In this document: positions 7,015-43,143 of the stretch, piece after piece
How the letters are laid out: every line of letters starts with the position of its first letter
How positions within the stretch are numbered: position 1 is the stretch's first letter
Origin: Candidatus Margulisiibacteriota bacterium
GTDB lineage: Bacteria > Margulisbacteria > WOR-1 > JAKLHX01
DNA length: 64,000 nucleotides
Assembly (NCBI GenBank): GCA_041650595.1
Contig: JBAZKW010000003.1
Coordinates: 44,843-108,842 of the forward strand
Direction of reading: 5' to 3'
The notes under the pieces: model-generated
The model's database searches: none
Told to the model about the DNA's origin: nothing
Seen by the model: only the letters and a program-made list of their open reading frames with translations
Translations under genes and position numbers: made by a program

Positions 7015-7585
7015 CCGCGACACCGAAGACCGGATCGTCGTCATTTTGCGCAAACACTTCATGAAATACTCCGATGAAGTACTGCAAAAATACAAAAATC
7101 AGATCGATGCTACCGTAAAATGGTATATCAACAACCTGCCTACCGCGGTTGCCGCCAGGGAAGCCGAAGACCTGACTTCGGAAGCCAAAATGGCTTTTGT
7201 AGACGCTCTAAAAGGATGGGACCCCCGCAAAGGGGACCTTTGGCCGTATGTAAGCATCCGTCTCAAAGGATCGATGCAGGATTATTTGAGAAAAAGAGGC
7301 ACAGACCCTGTCACCGGCATATACGAGTGGGTGACCCAGACGGCAAATGTATATCTTGCCTTCAACAAAGAGGTCGCCGTGACCGAGACCACAGAACTGG
7401 CCACACAGATAGACAGCGCGATGAAAGACCTGGATGAGAACGAACGAAAAGTGATCATTGGTTATTATCAGGACGACAAGACTTTCAAGGATATCGGCAA
7501 GGAAATCGGATTGTCAGAATCCCAGACCAGCAGGATCTGTAAAACAGCCACGCAAAAGCTCAAAAAGCTCCTATTTAAAGAATAA
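7007..7585 (+). CDS. Sigma-70 family sigma factor, FliA/sigma-28-like by context
   Basis: Region 2-like block (AFVDALKGWDPRKGDLWPYVSIRLKGSMQDYLRK) and a region 4 HTH (TFKDIGKEIGLSESQTSRICKTATQKLKK). It ends the flagellar operon. At 192 aa it is short. Confidence 0.75.
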   Translation: MADRDTEDRIVVILRKHFMKYSDEVLQKYKNQIDATVKWYINNLPTAVAAREAEDLTSEAKMAFVDALKGWDPRKGDLWPYVSIRLKGSMQDYLRKRGTDPVTGIYEWVTQTANVYLAFNKEVAVTETTELATQIDSAMKDLDENERKVIIGYYQDDKTFKDIGKEIGLSESQTSRICKTATQKLKKLLFKE

Positions 7586-7660
7586 GCCCCTTCCTTCACA
7601 ACTTCCACTCAAGTGGTTTCATTATTATGGACTTTTGTTGTAAAATGTAATTATCTAGAT

Positions 7661-7731
7661 GCGGGATTAGTTGACCGGTTCAATGTCAGCTTCCCAAGCT
7701 GAAGAAATGGGTTCGACTCCCATATCCCGCT
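7661..7731 (+). tRNA. tRNA-Gly (CCC)
   Basis: Manual cloverleaf: acceptor GCGGGAT/ATCCCGC, anticodon arm TCAGC-TTCCCAA-GCTGA, T arm ATGGG-TTCGACT-CCCAT. No encoded CCA. Confidence 0.85.
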
Positions 7732-7743
7732 CGTTAGTATAGG

Positions 7744-7795
7744 ATGGATTGCGGGTTCAAACCTGCCTGCCGGCAGGCAGGTCCCATCGCCCGCT
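7744..7795 (+). pseudogene. Decayed tRNA 3' fragment (tRNA-Gly-like T arm and acceptor) with a 20-nt palindrome in the T-loop
   Basis: The sequence ...GCGGGTTCAAA[CCTGCCTGCCGGCAGGCAGG]TCCCATCGCCCGCT resembles the tRNA-Gly 3' end (GGGTTCGACTCCCATATCCCGCT). Confidence 0.5.
7762..7781. repeat. Palindrome family A (CCTGCCTGCCGGCAGGCAGG), copy 1
   Basis: Perfect 20-nt palindrome, identical to the copies at 28744 and 35549. Confidence 0.95.
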
Positions 7796-7800
7796 TATTT

Positions 7801-7874
7801 GCGCGTTTAGCTCAGTTGGTTAGAGTACTTGCTTGACAGGCAAGGGGTCACTGGTTCGAACCCAGTAACGCGCA
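7801..7874 (+). tRNA. tRNA-Val (GAC)
   Basis: Acceptor GCGCGTT/AACGCGC, anticodon arm CTTGC-TTGACAG-GCAAG, T arm ACTGG-TTCGAAC-CCAGT. Confidence 0.9.
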
Positions 7875-7947
7875 TTGAAAGAAGTGAAATGCGCCAACAC
7901 CGCGAACGCGGGGGTGTTTTGCGCAAGCAAAAAGGTTGCTGGGTGCT

Positions 7948-8018
7948 GGCGGCATGGCCGAGTGGTCAGGCAGCGGTCTGCAAAACCGTTCACCTCAGTT
8001 CGATTCTGAGTGCCGCCT
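7948..8018 (+). tRNA. tRNA-Cys (GCA)
   Basis: Acceptor GGCGGCA/TGCCGCC, anticodon arm GCGGT-CTGCAAA-ACCGT, T arm CTCAG-TTCGATT-CTGAG. Confidence 0.9.
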
Positions 8019-8035
8019 AATTTCATAATTACTTG

Positions 8036-8089
8036 GTAAGGGAGTGGTCTGCAACCCCGACGAAGTCTGGGCGAATCTGGTCATCGCCT
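8036..8089 (+). pseudogene. Decayed tRNA-Cys-like fragment
   Basis: It shares GAGTGGTC and TGCAA with tRNA-Cys and has a degraded T arm and acceptor (GGGCGAATCTGGTCATCGCCT). It does not fold as a cloverleaf. Confidence 0.4.
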
Positions 8090-8092
8090 TAT

Positions 8093-8135
8093 TTGACAGG
8101 CAAGGGGTCACTGGTTCCAACCCAGTAATGTGTAC
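8093..8135 (+). pseudogene. Degenerate copy of the 3' half of tRNA-Val
   Basis: TTGACAGGCAAGGGGTCACTGGTTCcAACCCAGTAAtGtGtA matches 7833-7874 with 4 mismatches, running from the anticodon loop to the 3' end. Confidence 0.75.
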
Positions 8136-8216
8136 TATTTTTTGTTGTAGTTAAGAAGGAAATATAAAACGGAATTTTCTTCTTTTTCATTTATTGGGAA
8201 TTCTTCTAAGAATACT

Positions 8217-9113
8217 CTAAATATTAGTGGATTTCTTTAATTGATCAAGTTGGCTTTTAAGTATAACCGCTCCTGGGATCTGTGATAATTCTTGTAATAA
8301 TATTTTCAGTTTAGGAATAACACTTGATAGGTGGAAACACTCAATAATAATATCTGTGATAAGCGATATGTATTTTTCGATGTACAAATGGGATATTCCA
8401 AAAGAAGCAATATAATAGTTTTTATCAAATGCCAAAACTCCAGTTAGGCCACTATGAGTATCCCAGCATAACCTGGCATAGAGATATCGATAATCTTCGG
8501 CCATACCTACAAGATCGGCATTGCCAAAAATCTTTTTGCCAGTCCATGTGTCGGGCAGACTTGCCATTCCCCATAGTCGTTTATAAAGAATCTTATAATC
8601 TGCTGACTCGTTTTTATTAGCTACATATTTTTTTGCTTCACTTATAAAATCTTCGTTAATAATTGTAGCCGTTTTTGGATCTACCCCATTAATATACTTT
8701 TTTGCATACTCATATTTTTTTGCATCAACATATTGAAAATACTTGTTAGTGTCATCATTAATCATATTTAACCATAACAGCTTTGAATCAACTAATATTT
8801 CGAATATAGTTCTGCAATTGCTCGCAATAGTCTCATAGTATTTGATATTGTTTAATTCGATTACTGCATCCAGTCTTGAAACCATTCTTAGGTATAATCC
8901 TAATAGTATTTTCTCCTTATCTTTAAGTTTTAATTGCGACATCAAGATGGGAATGATGTATTTCCTTATAAAGACAAAATATTCTTTCGTACAAGTATAA
9001 AACGCATCTGCTCCTATCCTTGTAGTGCCTGGTTTCATGGTCTTTAAAAGTGCAAGATTCTCTTTGCTTAATTGATTGATCTCTCTTTCTATTGTTTCAA
9101 ACATTAGAATCAC
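8217..9113 (-). CDS. Hypothetical protein in a visibly AT-rich islet
   Basis: 298-aa uninterrupted ORF. Its composition is much more AT-rich than the neighbours (by eye). No confident domain call. Confidence 0.6.
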   Translation of the reverse strand: MILMFETIEREINQLSKENLALLKTMKPGTTRIGADAFYTCTKEYFVFIRKYIIPILMSQLKLKDKEKILLGLYLRMVSRLDAVIELNNIKYYETIASNCRTIFEILVDSKLLWLNMINDDTNKYFQYVDAKKYEYAKKYINGVDPKTATIINEDFISEAKKYVANKNESADYKILYKRLWGMASLPDTWTGKKIFGNADLVGMAEDYRYLYARLCWDTHSGLTGVLAFDKNYYIASFGISHLYIEKYISLITDIIIECFHLSSVIPKLKILLQELSQIPGAVILKSQLDQLKKSTNI

Positions 9114-28320: not shown

Positions 28321-28395
28321 TTACTCCTTACTGCTCACTTCTTACTCCTTAAATTCGCGAAGCGAGTAGCAAGGAATAAGAAGTAAGGAACAAGG
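28321..28395. repeat. Long imperfect hairpin (ACTTCTTACTCCTTA / TAAGGAATAAGAAGT)
   Basis: About a 15-bp stem with 1 mismatch around a TTCGCGAAGCGAG core, between the NUDIX start and the tRNA-fMet 3' end. Confidence 0.6.
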
Positions 28396-28418
28396 ATAAA
28401 TTTGCTATCGCAAATTTA

Positions 28419-28727
<309 letters not shown>

Positions 28728-28733
28728 CTCTGT

Positions 28734-28785
28734 CCCGACGAGCCCTGCCTGCCGGCAGGCAGGTACCAGGCTGCTCTACCCCGCG
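28734..28785 (-). pseudogene. Displaced 5' half of tRNA-fMet (nt 1-31) with palindrome A in the D-loop
   Basis: The minus strand reads CGCGGGGTAGAGCAGCCTGGTA[CCTGCCTGCCGGCAGGCAGG]GCTCGTCGGG. Outside the 20-nt insert (28744-28763) it is identical to the intact copy. Confidence 0.85.
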
Positions 28786-28897
28786 ATTATATTACTATTT
28801 TTGCATAGTTTGACGCTTAATTCAACTTTGGAAAAACATAAAAATCTGTAAAAAGTGAAATTTCTCAAAAATACACCCGATATAACTTTACAAAAGC

Positions 28898-35145: not shown

Positions 35146-35229
35146 TGCCGTTGGTCGGAGTCGAACCGACATGGGTTTGCACCCAAGGGATTTTAAGTCC
35201 CTCGTGTATACCAATTCCACCACAACGGC
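35146..35229 (-). tRNA. tRNA-Leu (UAA)
   Basis: The reverse complement reads GCCGTTGTGGTGGAATTGGTATACACGAGGGACTTAAAATCCCTTGGGTGCAAACCCATGTCGGTTCGACTCCGACCAACGGCA. It has a long variable arm and anticodon loop CTTAAAA. Confidence 0.9.
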
Positions 35230-35238
35230 GTTATGAAG

Positions 35239-35526
35239 CTATAAATTAACATCAATAGGAAATTCATGTTTGTTGACAAATTCCACTCTCTTCAACAATC
35301 TTTTAAGACCAGCCCTTCCACATCCGGATTTCATATATTTTTCCCGTTCGATGGCAGTAGATTCATTTTTCAAACATTCATAATATAGCATCTTAAAGGG
35401 CCTTCTGCGTCTGGTTGATTGTACTTTGCCGACATTGTGTTGATTGAATCGTCTCTTTAGATTGTTAGTATGACCAATATAAATATCCCCGTCTTTTTCA
35501 CTCTGAAGTACATATATGTAACACAT
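35239..35526 (-). CDS. GIY-YIG nuclease family protein (YhbQ/COG2827-like)
   Basis: MCYIYVLQSEKDGDIYIGHTNNLKRRFNQHNVG...AIEREKYMK. The stop lies 9 nt before tRNA-Leu position +1. Confidence 0.8.
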   Translation of the reverse strand: MCYIYVLQSEKDGDIYIGHTNNLKRRFNQHNVGKVQSTRRRRPFKMLYYECLKNESTAIEREKYMKSGCGRAGLKRLLKRVEFVNKHEFPIDVNL

Positions 35527-35531
35527 TAATT

Positions 35532-35585
35532 AGTCCCTCGTGTATACCCCTGCCTGCCGGCAGGCAGGAATTCCACCACAACGGC
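35532..35585 (-). pseudogene. Displaced 5' half of tRNA-Leu(UAA) (nt 1-33) with palindrome A in the D-loop
   Basis: The minus strand reads GCCGTTGTGGTGGAATT[CCTGCCTGCCGGCAGGCAGG]GGTATACACGAGGGACT. Outside the 20-nt insert (35549-35568) it is identical to the intact copy. Confidence 0.85.
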
Positions 35586-40665: not shown

Positions 40666-43143
40666 ATGGTAGAGTATAATTTTCGTGAAATTGAGAAGAA
40701 ATGGCAGGATTTTTGGGAAGCCAACAAAACCAATGAAGCCCTAAACCAAAGTGACAAGCCAAAGTTTTATGACCTCGTGATGTTCCCCTACCCGTCAGGC
40801 GCCATACATATGGGACATGTCAGGAATTATGCCATAGGAGATATAGTAGCCAGATACAAAAAAATGCAGGGCTTCAATGTACTGCATCCCATCGGCTGGG
40901 ACGCTTTTGGCATGCCGGCCGAGAATGCCGCGATAAAGAACAACTCCCATCCCAGAGACTGGACCGAAAAATGCATAGAGAGAATGAAAGTACAGCTAAA
41001 GAAGCTGGGTCTTTCCTACGATTGGTCTAGGGAAGTCACCACCTGCAAGGAGGATTATTACAAATGGACACAATGGATATTCCTTCAGTTTTACAAGGCG
41101 GGACTGGCTTACAGAAAAAAAGCCACCATAAATTGGTGCAATACCTGTGAAACAGTGCTTGCCAACGAACAGGCAAAAGAAGGAAAATGCTGGAGATGCG
41201 ACAGCAAAGTCGAAGAAAAAGCGCTCGAACAATGGTTTTTTAAGATAACCGCATACGCCGACAAACTGCTCAACGATATAGACAAACTGGAAGGGTGGCC
41301 GGATTCTGTAAAAATAATGCAGCGCAACTGGATCGGCAAAAGTGAGGGCACCAAAATAATCTTTAAGATCGAGAATTCTGATAAGACGCTCGAAGTTTTT
41401 ACCACAAGACCGGATACTTTGTTCGGCGTGACATATATGACGCTGGCACCGGAACATCCGCTGACGCTTGAGGTTTCGCATACGAAACCTCAACACGAGG
41501 CGGTAAAAAACTATATAGAAAAAGTCCGTGAAGAGAAAAAGCTCACCAGAGAGTTGTCGGATGAAAAGACGGGTGAGTTTACCGGGGCTTTTGCAATAAA
41601 TCCCGCAAACAACGAAAAAATACCGATATGGACGTCCGATTACGTCCTTATGGAATACGGCACAGGCGCTGTTATGGCCGTTCCGGCACACGACCAGAGA
41701 GATTTTGATTTCGCGAAGAAATTCGGATTGCCGGTCAAAACAGTGATCGTTCCGGTTGACCGCGTAGATGTTGATTGTAATCGACATCTACCTTTGGAAA
41801 TCAACGGTGCCTACGTCGATCCCGGCGTCATGGTAAACTCCGCCCAATTCGACGGCACAAAAAGCCCCGATGCCATAAACGCGATCACCGACTGGCTCAT
41901 CGAAAAGGGCGTCGGTAAAAGGGAAGTGAATTATAAGATCAGGGATTGGCTGATATCACGCCAGCGCTACTGGGGCGCGCCGATCCCGATAATTTATTGC
42001 GAAAAATGCGGTGCCGTTCCTGTTCCGGAAAAAGATCTCCCGGTAAAGCTCCCTTATGATGTAAAATTCACGGGAGAAGGGGGATCCCCTCTTTCAAGAT
42101 CCGATAAATTCGTAAATACAACATGCCCAAAGTGCGGAGATAAAGCAAAAAGAGAAACAGATACGCTGGATACGTTCAACTGCTCGTCGTGGTATTTTCT
42201 GCGCTACATAAATCCTAAGCAAATGGACAAGCCGTTCACATATGATGACTTAAAATATTGGATGCCTGTTGACCAATATATCGGAGGGATAGAACATGCT
42301 ATCCTTCATCTTCTTTATTCCAGGTTTTTCACCAAAGCCCTTTACGATCTTAAGCTGGTCCCGGCGGACGAACCTTTCAAAAATCTTTTGACCCAAGGAA
42401 TGGTCGTCAAAGACGGGGCAAAGATGAGCAAATCCAAGGGCAACGTGGTCGATCCGGATTACATTACCGAAAGATACGGGGCCGACACTGCCAGGCTTTT
42501 TATATTATTCGCGTCCCCTCCCGAGAGAGAGCTTGAATGGAGCGACGCAGGAGTAGAAGGAAGCTACCGGTTTTTGACTAGGATATGGAGATTGATTACG
42601 GAACAAGCCCTCACCCCCATCCCCTCTCCCAGCACGCTCTCGGCGGGCGTTGGGAGAGGGGTGCCCGAAGGGCGGGGTGAGGGTGAGATCATCCAAAAAC
42701 TCCACAAAACCATCAAAGGCGTGACGGATGACATCGAAAGATTTTCTTTCAATACGGCAATATCAAAGATCATGGAGCTTGTCAATGCATTGCAGGGACA
42801 ATCTTTCAGCAAGGCAACAGCAGAAAAGCTTATTATCATGATCTATCCGTTTGCTCCTCATATAGCGGAAGAGTTGTGGCATATGTTGGGAAATAAAAAT
42901 ACAATAACATCCGAGACCTGGCCTAAACATGACGAAAACCTCGCAAAAGAAAGCCGGATCGAGATACCGATCCAGGTGAATGGTAAATTGAGAGACAAAA
43001 TAATGGCTCGGGCCGGGATCTCGGAAGAAAACGCTAAAGAACTCGCGTTAAATACCGATAAAATTAAACAGGCGATCGCAGAAAAACAGATAGTTAAAAT
43101 AATTTTCGCAGGCGGAAAACTCGTGAATATTGTCGTAAAATAG
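40666..43143 (+). CDS. leuS: Leucine--tRNA ligase, carrying two in-frame palindrome insertions
   Basis: HMGH (HIGH-type) and KMSKS motifs and a CP1 editing domain. Start set at MVEYNFREIEKKWQ. Confidence 0.95.
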   Translation: MVEYNFREIEKKWQDFWEANKTNEALNQSDKPKFYDLVMFPYPSGAIHMGHVRNYAIGDIVARYKKMQGFNVLHPIGWDAFGMPAENAAIKNNSHPRDWTEKCIERMKVQLKKLGLSYDWSREVTTCKEDYYKWTQWIFLQFYKAGLAYRKKATINWCNTCETVLANEQAKEGKCWRCDSKVEEKALEQWFFKITAYADKLLNDIDKLEGWPDSVKIMQRNWIGKSEGTKIIFKIENSDKTLEVFTTRPDTLFGVTYMTLAPEHPLTLEVSHTKPQHEAVKNYIEKVREEKKLTRELSDEKTGEFTGAFAINPANNEKIPIWTSDYVLMEYGTGAVMAVPAHDQRDFDFAKKFGLPVKTVIVPVDRVDVDCNRHLPLEINGAYVDPGVMVNSAQFDGTKSPDAINAITDWLIEKGVGKREVNYKIRDWLISRQRYWGAPIPIIYCEKCGAVPVPEKDLPVKLPYDVKFTGEGGSPLSRSDKFVNTTCPKCGDKAKRETDTLDTFNCSSWYFLRYINPKQMDKPFTYDDLKYWMPVDQYIGGIEHAILHLLYSRFFTKALYDLKLVPADEPFKNLLTQGMVVKDGAKMSKSKGNVVDPDYITERYGADTARLFILFASPPERELEWSDAGVEGSYRFLTRIWRLITEQALTPIPSPSTLSAGVGRGVPEGRGEGEIIQKLHKTIKGVTDDIERFSFNTAISKIMELVNALQGQSFSKATAEKLIIMIYPFAPHIAEELWHMLGNKNTITSETWPKHDENLAKESRIEIPIQVNGKLRDKIMARAGISEENAKELALNTDKIKQAIAEKQIVKIIFAGGKLVNIVVK
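41764..41791. repeat. Palindrome family F (GTAGATGYYGATTGYAATCGRCATCTAC), copy inside leuS
   Basis: GTAGATGTTGATTGTAATCGACATCTAC encodes VDVDCNRHL. Confidence 0.9.
42608..42684. repeat. Palindrome family C, long copy inside leuS
   Basis: CCCTCACCCCCATCCCCTCTCCC ... GGGAGAGGGG ... GGGGTGAGGGTGAG encodes ALTPIPSPSTLSAGVGRGVPEGRGEGE. Confidence 0.85.

Follow-up and report, generated by a model that had tools for sequence, protein, structure and literature searches.

A 20-base palindrome in broken tRNA gene copies of a Margulisbacteria genome, beside minimal GIY-YIG nuclease cassettes and as a solo insertion

The window analyzed here is a stretch of 64,000 nucleotides from the genome of a Candidatus Margulisiibacteriota bacterium, and our subject is a perfect 20-base palindrome within it, CCTGCCTGCCGGCAGGCAGG, which we call PAL. 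One copy (7762 to 7781, strand not applicable) lies in a cluster of tRNA genes that begins with a functional tRNA-Gly(CCC) gene (7661 to 7732, plus strand; found by ARAGORN and scored at 58.9 bits with Rfam). After 18 nt there follows a dead 3' fragment, or stump, of a tRNA-Gly gene and then a functional tRNA-Val(GAC) gene (7800 to 7875, plus strand). PAL interrupts the stump, as the letters from 7744 to 7795 read ATGGATT, GCGGGTTCAAA, CCTGCCTGCCGGCAGGCAGG, and TCCCATCGCCCGCT. The left part of the stump, GCGGGTTCAAA (7751 to 7761, plus strand), comprises the 5' strand of the T-stem and T-loop bases, and the right part, TCCCATCGCCCGCT (7782 to 7795, plus strand), supplies the last T-loop base, the 3' strands of the T-stem and of the acceptor stem, and the discriminator. 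Upon excision of PAL, the two parts join into GGGTTCAAATCCCATCGCCCGCT, 23 bases that are 100% identical to positions 50 to 72 of a tRNA-Gly(UCC) gene on another contig. Thus, PAL was inserted between T-loop positions 59 and 60, without target-site duplication. This agrees with an earlier reading made from the letters alone (hereafter the sequence-only reading), which had placed a 20-nt palindrome in the T-loop of a dead tRNA 3' fragment and had counted 2 mismatches between the 14 bases after it and the 3' end of the adjacent tRNA-Gly(CCC). In the predicted RNA fold, PAL forms a 9-bp hairpin within a 6-bp outer stem (-27.1 kcal/mol). An Rfam search returned no match in the stump.

Comparison with relatives points to an origin of the stump other than the neighboring gene with which it had been compared. 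The genomes G002 (same genus), G004, and G005 carry a tRNA-Gly(CCC) gene of ordinary sequence 3' of the same sigma-factor gene, and the 3' end of the G004 gene is exactly the 23-mer of the stump; the right part alone is 100% identical both to that end and to the 3' end of the genome's own tRNA-Gly(UCC). The present tRNA-Gly(CCC) allele, shared with G001, differs from the G002/G004/G005 allele over its entire length, and an exact-pattern scan of 185,579 species genomes retrieved only a G001-like record for it. The stump differs from the adjacent gene at 4 of its 23 positions, and its weaker similarity to the old allele reaches back to about position 40 (alignment of 40 to 72; about 7742 in the window). 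tRNA-Val(GAC) stands beside tRNA-Gly in congeners too, 7 nt after tRNA-Gly(CCC) in G002, and the native 4-nt gap between the stump and tRNA-Val is preserved. Because relatives have an intact gene at the same site and the spacing to tRNA-Val is the native one, the stump is the leftover of the resident tRNA-Gly(CCC) gene, displaced by a different allele, and not a copy of its neighbor.

The window contains exactly three perfect copies of PAL, at 7762, 28744, and 35549. No further match was found in the window when up to three mismatches were allowed, and 100 shuffles of the window yielded zero matches. ARAGORN, Rfam, and exact matching bore out the earlier statement that all three copies lie within partial tRNAs and none in a functional one. 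Besides the tRNA-Gly 3' fragment (59|60, that is, between positions 59 and 60), the hosts are positions 1 to 33 of tRNA-Met (21|22) and 1 to 34 of tRNA-Leu(UAA) (17|18), and PAL is found in none of the five functional tRNAs of the window, on which ARAGORN and Rfam agree. In both 5' stumps PAL occupies the D-arm, and its excision leaves sequence 100% identical to the neighboring gene.

These two 5' stumps open cassettes that consist of a minimal GIY-YIG nuclease gene and an intact tRNA. In the first, the tRNA-Met stump (28733 to 28786, minus strand, with PAL at 28744 to 28763) lies 16 nt upstream of the open reading frame (ORF) for an 85-amino acid (aa) single-domain GIY-YIG nuclease (28470 to 28727, minus strand; Pfam PF01541, E = 5e-17), followed by intact tRNA-Met (28418 to 28493). 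In the second, the tRNA-Leu(UAA) stump (35532 to 35585, minus strand, with PAL at 35549 to 35568) lies 22 nt upstream of the ORF for a 95-aa single-domain nuclease (35239 to 35526, minus strand; PF01541, E = 6e-19), followed by intact tRNA-Leu(UAA) (35146 to 35229). Both proteins are bare catalytic domains, with PF01541 covering residues 1 to 67 and no other domain, and are 37% identical to one another; among solved structures, the closest are UPF0213 proteins, namely BH0048 and EF2693 (1zg2 and 1ywl), then Slx1. The two cassettes are absent from congeners, and among G001 to G003 their sites are empty (the tRNA-Met site in all three, the tRNA-Leu(UAA) site in G002). Such cassettes are the main invaders of tRNA genes, and PAL is specifically tied to the dead tRNA pieces that DNA invading tRNA genes leaves behind.

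This association extends over the whole genome (G000; 1.89 Mb in 47 contigs), which holds 32 perfect copies of PAL and about 13 with one or two mismatches. For 13 of the 32 perfect copies, a tRNA gene is no more than 350 bp away, although DNA this close to a tRNA gene makes up only 1.35% of the genome (binomial p = 1.4e-16); when insertions were restricted to a tenth of the genome, p was still 1.4e-4. A search with all of the genome's own tRNAs after excision of PAL detected 14 stumps outside tRNA genes, about 405 bp in all, and 8 of the 14 are occupied by PAL, against about 0.07 expected for 32 copies placed at random in a tenth of the genome (an arithmetic estimate). Further PAL sites lie in shorter or more diverged tRNA pieces that the stump search missed (tRNA-Ala, a tRNA-Leu, tRNA-Thr(GGU), tRNA-Asn, and one without an assigned parent). 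Among 138 perfect palindromes of at least 16 nt, 13 of 36 members of the PAL family lie near a tRNA, compared with 2 of the 102 others (odds ratio 28, p = 2.8e-7). Thus, the link to tRNAs is a property of PAL and not of palindromes or neutral DNA in general. Some PAL copies (C2:93926, C2:119335, C6:27208, C7:42466, C10:33238, and C27:10242) lie within long ORFs of 300 to 700 aa, which may be genes that the insertion interrupts or extends.

The stumps that carry PAL are young. Its excision restored contiguous tRNA sequence at all eight, and seven of the eight are 100% identical to the parent tRNA, whereas the PAL-free stumps are 88 to 97% identical, very short, or common to G001. Genome-wide, excision gave rise to no new tRNA gene. 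In the 3' stumps PAL sits at 53|54 (tRNA-Thr(CGU)), at 61|62 (an Arg(CCG)-like stump, two of tRNA-Lys, and one of tRNA-Ser), or at 59|60 (tRNA-Ala and tRNA-Gly). The tRNA-Thr(CGU) stump is missing from relatives, as are the tRNA-Met and tRNA-Leu(UAA) cassettes. Since stumps with PAL are identical to their parents and absent from relatives, stump formation and PAL insertion belong to one recent burst in this genome. We found no PAL-free intermediate of any PAL-bearing stump, and a metagenome scan for a PAL-free allele of the tRNA-Gly stump gave 0 matches.

Of 41 relatives, 27 contain the exact 20-mer; across the set the number of copies per genome ranges from 0 to 15 (2 and 0 in the two congeners), and the count in the present genome exceeds that of every relative. 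Beyond these relatives, we found it in more than 120 stretches of species genomes and in 35 stretches of viral contigs, letter-identical in at least nine phyla as assigned by record titles. Its hosts include Patescibacteria lineages, Omnitrophota, Planctomycetota, Gammaproteobacteria, delta-proteobacteria/Thermodesulfobacteriota, Bdellovibrionales, Thermodesulfovibrio, Chloroflexi, and Bacteroidota, the last with cultured Winogradskyella, Flagellimonas, Longitalea, and Flavivirga. We compared 138 sites in other genomes: a tRNA gene is found within 500 bp of 18 of them, and the sequence across the insertion point is tRNA-like in 15, compared with 0.9% of control positions at the same loci (odds ratio 14, p = 6.5e-11); for viral contigs the figure is 3 of 42 sites. 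A complete tRNA with PAL inside was found neither in this genome nor in the others. Excision at 132 loci of other genomes produced a single extra tRNA call, an 86-nt chimera of a stump (positions 1 to 45) and the adjacent tRNA-Val. The link between PAL and tRNAs is therefore real across phyla.

We excluded several simpler identities for the palindrome. Chance or artefact is rejected, as the shuffled windows gave no match, the stretches with PAL include cultured Bacteroidota isolates, and about 0.5 matches would be expected by chance in 596 Gb (an arithmetic estimate); to our knowledge, no sequencing adapter matches PAL. It is also not a pair of 10-bp terminal repeats of a larger transposon, as its half-sites never enclose cargo. 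Nor is it an intrinsic terminator: runs of T follow PAL in 9% of cases versus 8.5% at random positions in this genome, and in 6% versus 7.6% elsewhere, and terminator prediction across 7500 to 8250 called none.

Outside tRNA-like DNA, many copies have flanks that, once joined, correspond to PAL-free paralogues at other places in the genome. PAL has hit the ccctcacc|cctaacccctctccc repeat family, of which 27 to 30 copies are PAL-free, the cattgcgaggagcgaagcgacg|aagcaatc family (19 PAL-free paralogues of the site, 52 copies in total), and the gggcgggttttaaacccgccc hairpin family, and older PAL copies were themselves targets of PAL insertion. Cargo between the two 10-mers was never seen. PAL is a 20-bp hairpin element able to insert alone. 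No target motif emerged beyond a bias in the two flanking bases: across 170 sites (G000 and L001 to L146), C^C/G^G account for 33% and A^T for 21%, where the two together would be expected at about 19% (chi-square p = 1e-26). Flanking TA, GA/TC, CA/TG, and AA/TT are depleted 3- to 5-fold across the same sites.

One suggestion of the sequence-only reading, a mobile REP-like (repetitive extragenic palindromic) hairpin that persists where a tRNA copy is dispensable, is largely borne out by these results, as PAL inserts precisely, lands in unrelated repeats, never occupies a complete tRNA, and is strongly enriched at tRNA-like DNA. The preference for loops that formed part of that suggestion could not be established. 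In tRNA-like sites PAL is found in the D-arm, anticodon loop, variable loop, and T-arm, in loops or one to two bases into a stem; because about half of all tRNA positions qualify by chance, the distribution is near random expectation and a loop preference is unsupported.

We next consider the cassettes, using a set of 80 small GIY-YIG loci from relatives, 6 of this genome, and 4 from other phyla. Their tree resolved two well-supported clades. Clade A holds genes that follow tRNA-Asn or tRNA-Gln in many genera, without cassette or stump, and whose products begin with MPYFVYILEC...; clade B holds the cassette-type genes, whose nucleases cluster by accompanying tRNA. The clade loci are L205 to L284 in relatives and include C9:46632-46892 in this genome. 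A tRNA gene begins no more than 150 nt from the end of the ORF for 42 genes, of which 37 also have an upstream 5' stump. In 19 cassettes the stump could be resolved into two collinear pieces split by an insert, and in all 19 the insert is a GC-rich hairpin: PAL in 5, other sequences of 19 to 84 nt in the rest. Four more cassettes (tRNA-Met here, L220, L229, and L248) have PAL upstream of the ORF in a stump not resolved into two pieces, and PAL is the commonest hairpin in cassette stumps. At L266 (G019, C2:179214-180420), two tRNA-Leu 5' stump copies flank the GIY-YIG gene, one with a tcccgatgcgcttttcgcgatcggga hairpin and the other with PAL, at the same D-arm position right after ...ggtaga.

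The hairpin lies 6 to 20 nt from the stump end in 19 of 19 cassettes, both where the stump stops at tRNA position 21 and where it reaches 76; among the eight stumps of more than 36 nt, such positions would arise from random placement with p of about 6e-4 (an arithmetic estimate). This constancy, together with the young age of the stumps tested, lends some support to the second suggestion of the sequence-only reading, a deliberate link between the palindrome and tRNA remnants. PAL also lies 16 to 22 nt upstream of a GIY-YIG start codon in WWE3 (L063), L132, G003, G032, G033, and G035, and flanks such a gene likewise, on the 5' side only, in L010, L063, L132, L220, L229, and L242. Among the 10 relatives richest in PAL, seven have a copy at most about 250 nt from a GIY-YIG gene.

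Our best reading of these data is that PAL, a mobile hairpin, is linked to nuclease cassettes that target tRNAs, and the way in which it inserts is our inference. Minimal nucleases (UPF0213-, Slx1-, or Ssn-like) without a DNA-binding domain would recognize and nick the hairpin or cloverleaf single-stranded DNA (ssDNA) of tRNA genes and of PAL; host repair of the nicks or breaks would copy or capture the hairpin element; and selection would eliminate insertions in a working tRNA copy, so that PAL would be kept only in stumps and other dispensable repeats. The tRNA-Gly copy could have either of two histories: the nucleases encoded 21 and 28 kb away may have inserted it in trans as a solo element, or it may be the remainder of a cassette that has lost its nuclease gene. 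We give this combination of nicking, repair copying, and purging from working tRNAs a probability of roughly 45%.

Several observations weigh against it. GIY-YIG enzymes hydrolyze DNA and cannot join strands; thus, the insertion step would need further host functions. The attraction of PAL to broken tRNA gene copies is strong but not exclusive, and the element also occurs outside tRNA remnants: 19 of the 32 copies here lack tRNA-like flanks, about 89% of the sites in other genomes lie outside tRNA-like DNA, and these copies, the majority, are solo, distant from both GIY-YIG genes and tRNAs. The sequence-only reading had proposed to tabulate the flanks of the 20-mer genome-wide and had held that a majority of copies in ordinary intergenic DNA would speak against the link; the tabulation returned strong enrichment of tRNA flanks along with just such a majority, which, taken literally, goes against the idea. 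The tRNA-Gly stump copy itself has no nuclease gene nearby, and small GIY-YIG genes lie within 1.2 kb of only a few of the 138 sites in other genomes. Five relatives (G022, G039, G014, G034, and G025) contain four to seven PAL copies and no PAL-linked GIY-YIG gene. The distance rule is weak for short 3' stumps, in which any position falls within a range of 6 to 22 nt. Finally, the tree rejected a single clade of PAL-linked nucleases: they are polyphyletic (8 changes for 8 rows, the same as with shuffled labels) and spread over at least four or five lineages (tRNA-Met, Ser-like, Lys, Gly, and Leu/Arg). Since they are only about 37% identical to each other while the hairpin is identical, a promiscuous invader fits better than a co-evolving pair.

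A bolder form of our reading, which we regard as possible but doubtful, is that PAL and the minimal GIY-YIG nucleases make up an unrecognized mobile system of two parts whose target is the shape of the DNA. The folded ssDNA of tRNA genes would be cut by a nuclease reduced to its bare domain (80 to 95 aa), and repair would write the 20-base hairpin into the break, sometimes along with the nuclease gene and a spare tRNA. The universality of tRNA genes could then allow one identical 20-mer to spread over at least nine phyla and their viruses, and the solo T-loop copy at 7762 would be direct evidence of a hairpin written in trans into dispensable tRNA-shaped DNA.

On the whole unlikely is the explanation that PAL is a free-living REP-like hairpin unconnected to the GIY-YIG genes and mobilized in trans by another enzyme, such as a RAYT or IS200-like HUH transposase. 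PAL would then simply prefer DNA that folds when single-stranded, stumps would be hit because they fold and are dispensable, and its proximity to nucleases would reflect the stumps that those genes create. The solo majority, the entry of PAL into hairpin-forming repeats and older PAL copies, and the polyphyly of the linked nucleases are all in keeping with this, and insertion of REPs into small palindromes is documented (PMC3733652). In other genomes, stems of at least 6 bp bracket the insertion point at 15% of sites compared with 5% of non-ORF controls, and bracketing stems of 6 to 7 bp or more show a 3- to 5-fold excess, in 10 to 15% of sites. However, neither bracketing stems nor hairpin apices are in excess in this genome, and a general preference of PAL for hairpin tips is only weakly indicated. 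Moreover, the other perfect palindromes are not enriched near tRNAs, and thus foldable, dispensable DNA alone is insufficient to explain the link.

The genome has no full IS200/IS605 transposase and five RAYT-like genes (NCBIfam NF047646, 52 to 60 bits, below the 80-bit cut-off); none is found in the four closest relatives, which have 0 to 4 PAL copies, as would be expected if these genes moved PAL. The RAYT-like genes are, however, flanked by perfect GTAG...CTAC palindromes of 28 to 30 nt or by nothing, and never by PAL. Their presence in relatives does not track PAL counts either, as G024 and G035 have 12 to 13 copies and no such gene, while in G005 and G008 several such genes coexist with one PAL at most. 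A RAYT as the mover of PAL is therefore not supported. Two of the five genes, flanked by palindromes of the GTAG...CTAC and related type (C8:42014-42090 and 42814-42843; C5:9248-9275), form a separate system of the REP/RAYT type, missing in the four closest relatives.

We consider it improbable that PAL is instead the terminal hairpin of incoming DNA, arriving together with the junction through break-repair co-conversion or Campbell-type integration of a permuted circle, in which case the tRNA-Gly copy would be the end of a unit that delivered the new tRNA-Gly allele. The short distance between hairpin and junction in all 19 resolved cassettes would follow naturally, and each PAL-bearing stump tested is as young as its cassette, with no PAL-free intermediate. 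In addition, the tRNA-Lys, tRNA-Ser, and tRNA-Ala 3' stumps have PAL exactly between the stump and a conserved element whose long form is about 135 nt; this arrangement recurs in four 3' stumps here and one in G024 (a tRNA-Tyr cassette, then a related element, PAL at 61|62, and a 3' stump), with PAL at 61|62 or 59|60. On the other hand, both flanks of PAL are contiguous local tRNA sequence, and thus the crossover was not at PAL. In G002 and G006 the element of about 135 nt adjoins its stump with no PAL between them, PAL alone enters unrelated repeats, and tRNA-Leu(UAA) cassettes have different hairpins at different positions (17|18 here versus 24|25 in G025). Less probable still is that the hairpin is retained by selection for an effect in the stump, as in the marking or disabling role raised in the sequence-only reading (by breaking a direct repeat against deletion, stopping a toxic tRNA-like transcript, or serving as a signal for RNA processing or stabilization): although PAL is carried by the stumps with 100% identity to a nearby gene and splits them into blocks of 7 to 21 nt, while PAL-free stumps are diverged, very short, or distant, and although one and the same slot upstream of the ORF is filled by different hairpins, the stump of tRNA-Gly has enough differences from the adjacent gene to need no protection, the T-run frequencies exclude a terminator, most copies lie outside stumps, and selection cannot alone supply insertions.

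Small palindromic mobile repeats, and pairs of a GIY-YIG nuclease with a hairpin repeat, are already known. The nearest precedent for the pairing described here is the Ssn family (Chenal et al. 2025, PMC11893778). An Ssn nuclease consists of one GIY-YIG domain (about 94 aa); it binds a hairpin repeat on the flank of the gene that encodes it and cuts ssDNA beside the hairpin. Hundreds of solo repeats are dispersed in the genome, and the authors compare the layout to an insertion sequence. As with Ssn and its SRM repeats (20 to 50 nt), the genes here encode single GIY-YIG domains of about 90 aa (85 and 95 aa), are flanked by a hairpin, and share that hairpin with many solo genomic copies. In contrast to SRMs, PAL is a perfect, unoriented palindrome without a CGTC/GTC tag and falls outside the SRM search pattern HGTCWY...RNCYNB. 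That pattern has 13 matches in the genome versus 8.3 in shuffles, none within 600 nt of a GIY-YIG gene; with this mismatch, the lack of enrichment, and the absence beside GIY-YIG genes, PAL is not an SRM member. Furthermore, the genes here sit within split tRNA genes, and PMC11893778 makes no mention of tRNA.

PAL resembles REPs and REPINs (PMC3116915 and PMC3733652) in being short, GC-rich, mostly extragenic, and present in tens of copies without obvious target duplication, and some REP families insert into other small palindromes (PMC3733652). However, a REP is defined as an imperfect palindrome of 20 to 40 bp with a conserved GTAG (or CGTC) tag at one end (PMC3733652), whereas PAL (CCTG...CAGG) is perfect and has no such tag, loop, or tail. 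Unlike REPs paired with RAYTs, it flanks none of the five RAYT-like genes; unlike REPs, which are species- or genus-specific, it is identical across phyla; and its strong bias to tRNA stumps is reported for no REP family. From a miniature inverted-repeat transposable element it differs by the lack of target-site duplication at any tRNA-derived site and of internal cargo.

Like SegB of phage T4 (PMC2330249), the nuclease genes are GIY-YIG genes among tRNA genes, and their spread is tied to tRNA gene sequences. In contrast to SegB and the I-TevI type, which join a catalytic domain to a DNA-binding domain for a long target, the proteins here are bare catalytic domains of 85 to 95 aa; the stump-plus-hairpin layout is not described for SegB, and the tRNA-Gly copy has no adjoining nuclease gene. 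As is the case for homing endonuclease genes, occupied and empty alleles exist at the tRNA-Met and tRNA-Leu(UAA) sites. The partial tRNA 3' end, present as a direct repeat downstream of an intact gene, also recalls the attL/attR of integrative elements that target tRNA genes. In those terms, however, only 18 nt separate tRNA-Gly from the stump, with no integrase and no cargo, the intact tRNA-Gly is a different allele over its whole length and not only at its 3' end, and the stump, unlike an att repeat, carries a palindrome insertion.

Tiny GC-rich palindromic units that nest in repeats, often beside tRNA genes, exist as GC clusters in yeast mitochondria, as PstI palindromes in Neurospora (which flank tRNA genes), and as small repeats in Nostocaceae; these belong to other organisms and differ in sequence from PAL. 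We know of no report of such a fungal mitochondrial or Nostocaceae palindrome in duplicated tRNA fragments, or letter-identical across phyla.

A literature search found neither the 20-mer nor its core in any paper of the library covered, and palindromes in tRNA fragments are not described in the REP survey (PMC3733652) or the Ssn paper (PMC11893778). If the link holds, PAL, identical from Patescibacteria to Bacteroidota, Planctomycetota, Pseudomonadota, and viral contigs, would be an active element whose targets are set by tRNA-gene structure or by a tRNA-directed nuclease, neither of which we found described in the literature searched. It would help explain the repeated overwriting of tRNA genes in small uncultured genomes and would give annotators a simple marker of dead tRNA copies and past invasions. 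It also points to very small nucleases, possibly structure-specific on ssDNA, for which practical interest is argued in PMC11893778.

The conserved element, about 135 nt long, seems to be a structured element not described before, with the 3' ends of tRNA genes as its target. Compensatory changes among four sequences support 15 of 35 predicted pairs of its fold, and Rfam returned no match to it. The element separates intact tRNA genes from their duplicated 3' ends, with a terminus of the form ...ATGGCCCGAAGC-hairpin-CGGAGGCCGAATC at the T-loop, in C28:2606-2740 (minus strand) of this genome, L018 (G002), L023 (G005, with CCTGCC at the junction), and L026 (G006); short forms occur at C17:15651-15692 and C1:54327-54368. 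Many tRNA genes are also followed by a composite of a aaatttgcgaagcaaattt hairpin, a ccttacttcttactcc-type run, and its inverted complement aaggagtaagaagtaagg (window 28340 to 28417; C1:54140-54330, C17:15700-15806, and C1:219299-219400). A further repeat family, gtcattgcgaggagcgaagcgacgaagcaatcc, has 52 copies in this genome (for example, C5:77245-77300) and occurs in L075, a metagenome-assembled genome of the PVC group, a distant phylum. It outwardly resembles the Neisseria NTS (CGTCATT...AATC), and PAL is inserted in it at two different positions.

The region from 7661 to 8128 is a hotspot of tRNA gene replacement, in which tRNA-Gly(CCC) and tRNA-Cys have been replaced relative to congeners and three leftovers remain. 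About 200 bp downstream of tRNA-Gly, the functional tRNA-Cys(GCA) gene (7948 to 8018, plus strand) differs from the tRNA-Cys of G001 and G002 and is a replacement allele; it is followed by a decayed, PAL-free copy of the old tRNA-Cys (positions about 15 to 72; 8034 to 8089, plus strand, by local alignment to the G001/G002 gene) and a PAL-free tRNA-Val 3' stump (positions 28 to 69; 8088 to 8128, plus strand; 97% identity over 36 nt). A shortened form of the tRNA-Val stump is also found in G001; thus, this stump is older. In G005 (L023), a pseudo-tRNA-Gly about 30 to 100 nt after the sigma gene, upstream of tRNA-Gly(CCC), has its anticodon arm swapped for a cccgctccgagcggg hairpin, and a downstream 3' stump, 370 to 395 nt after the sigma gene, has six extra T-loop bases, CCTGCC, which may be a decayed PAL.

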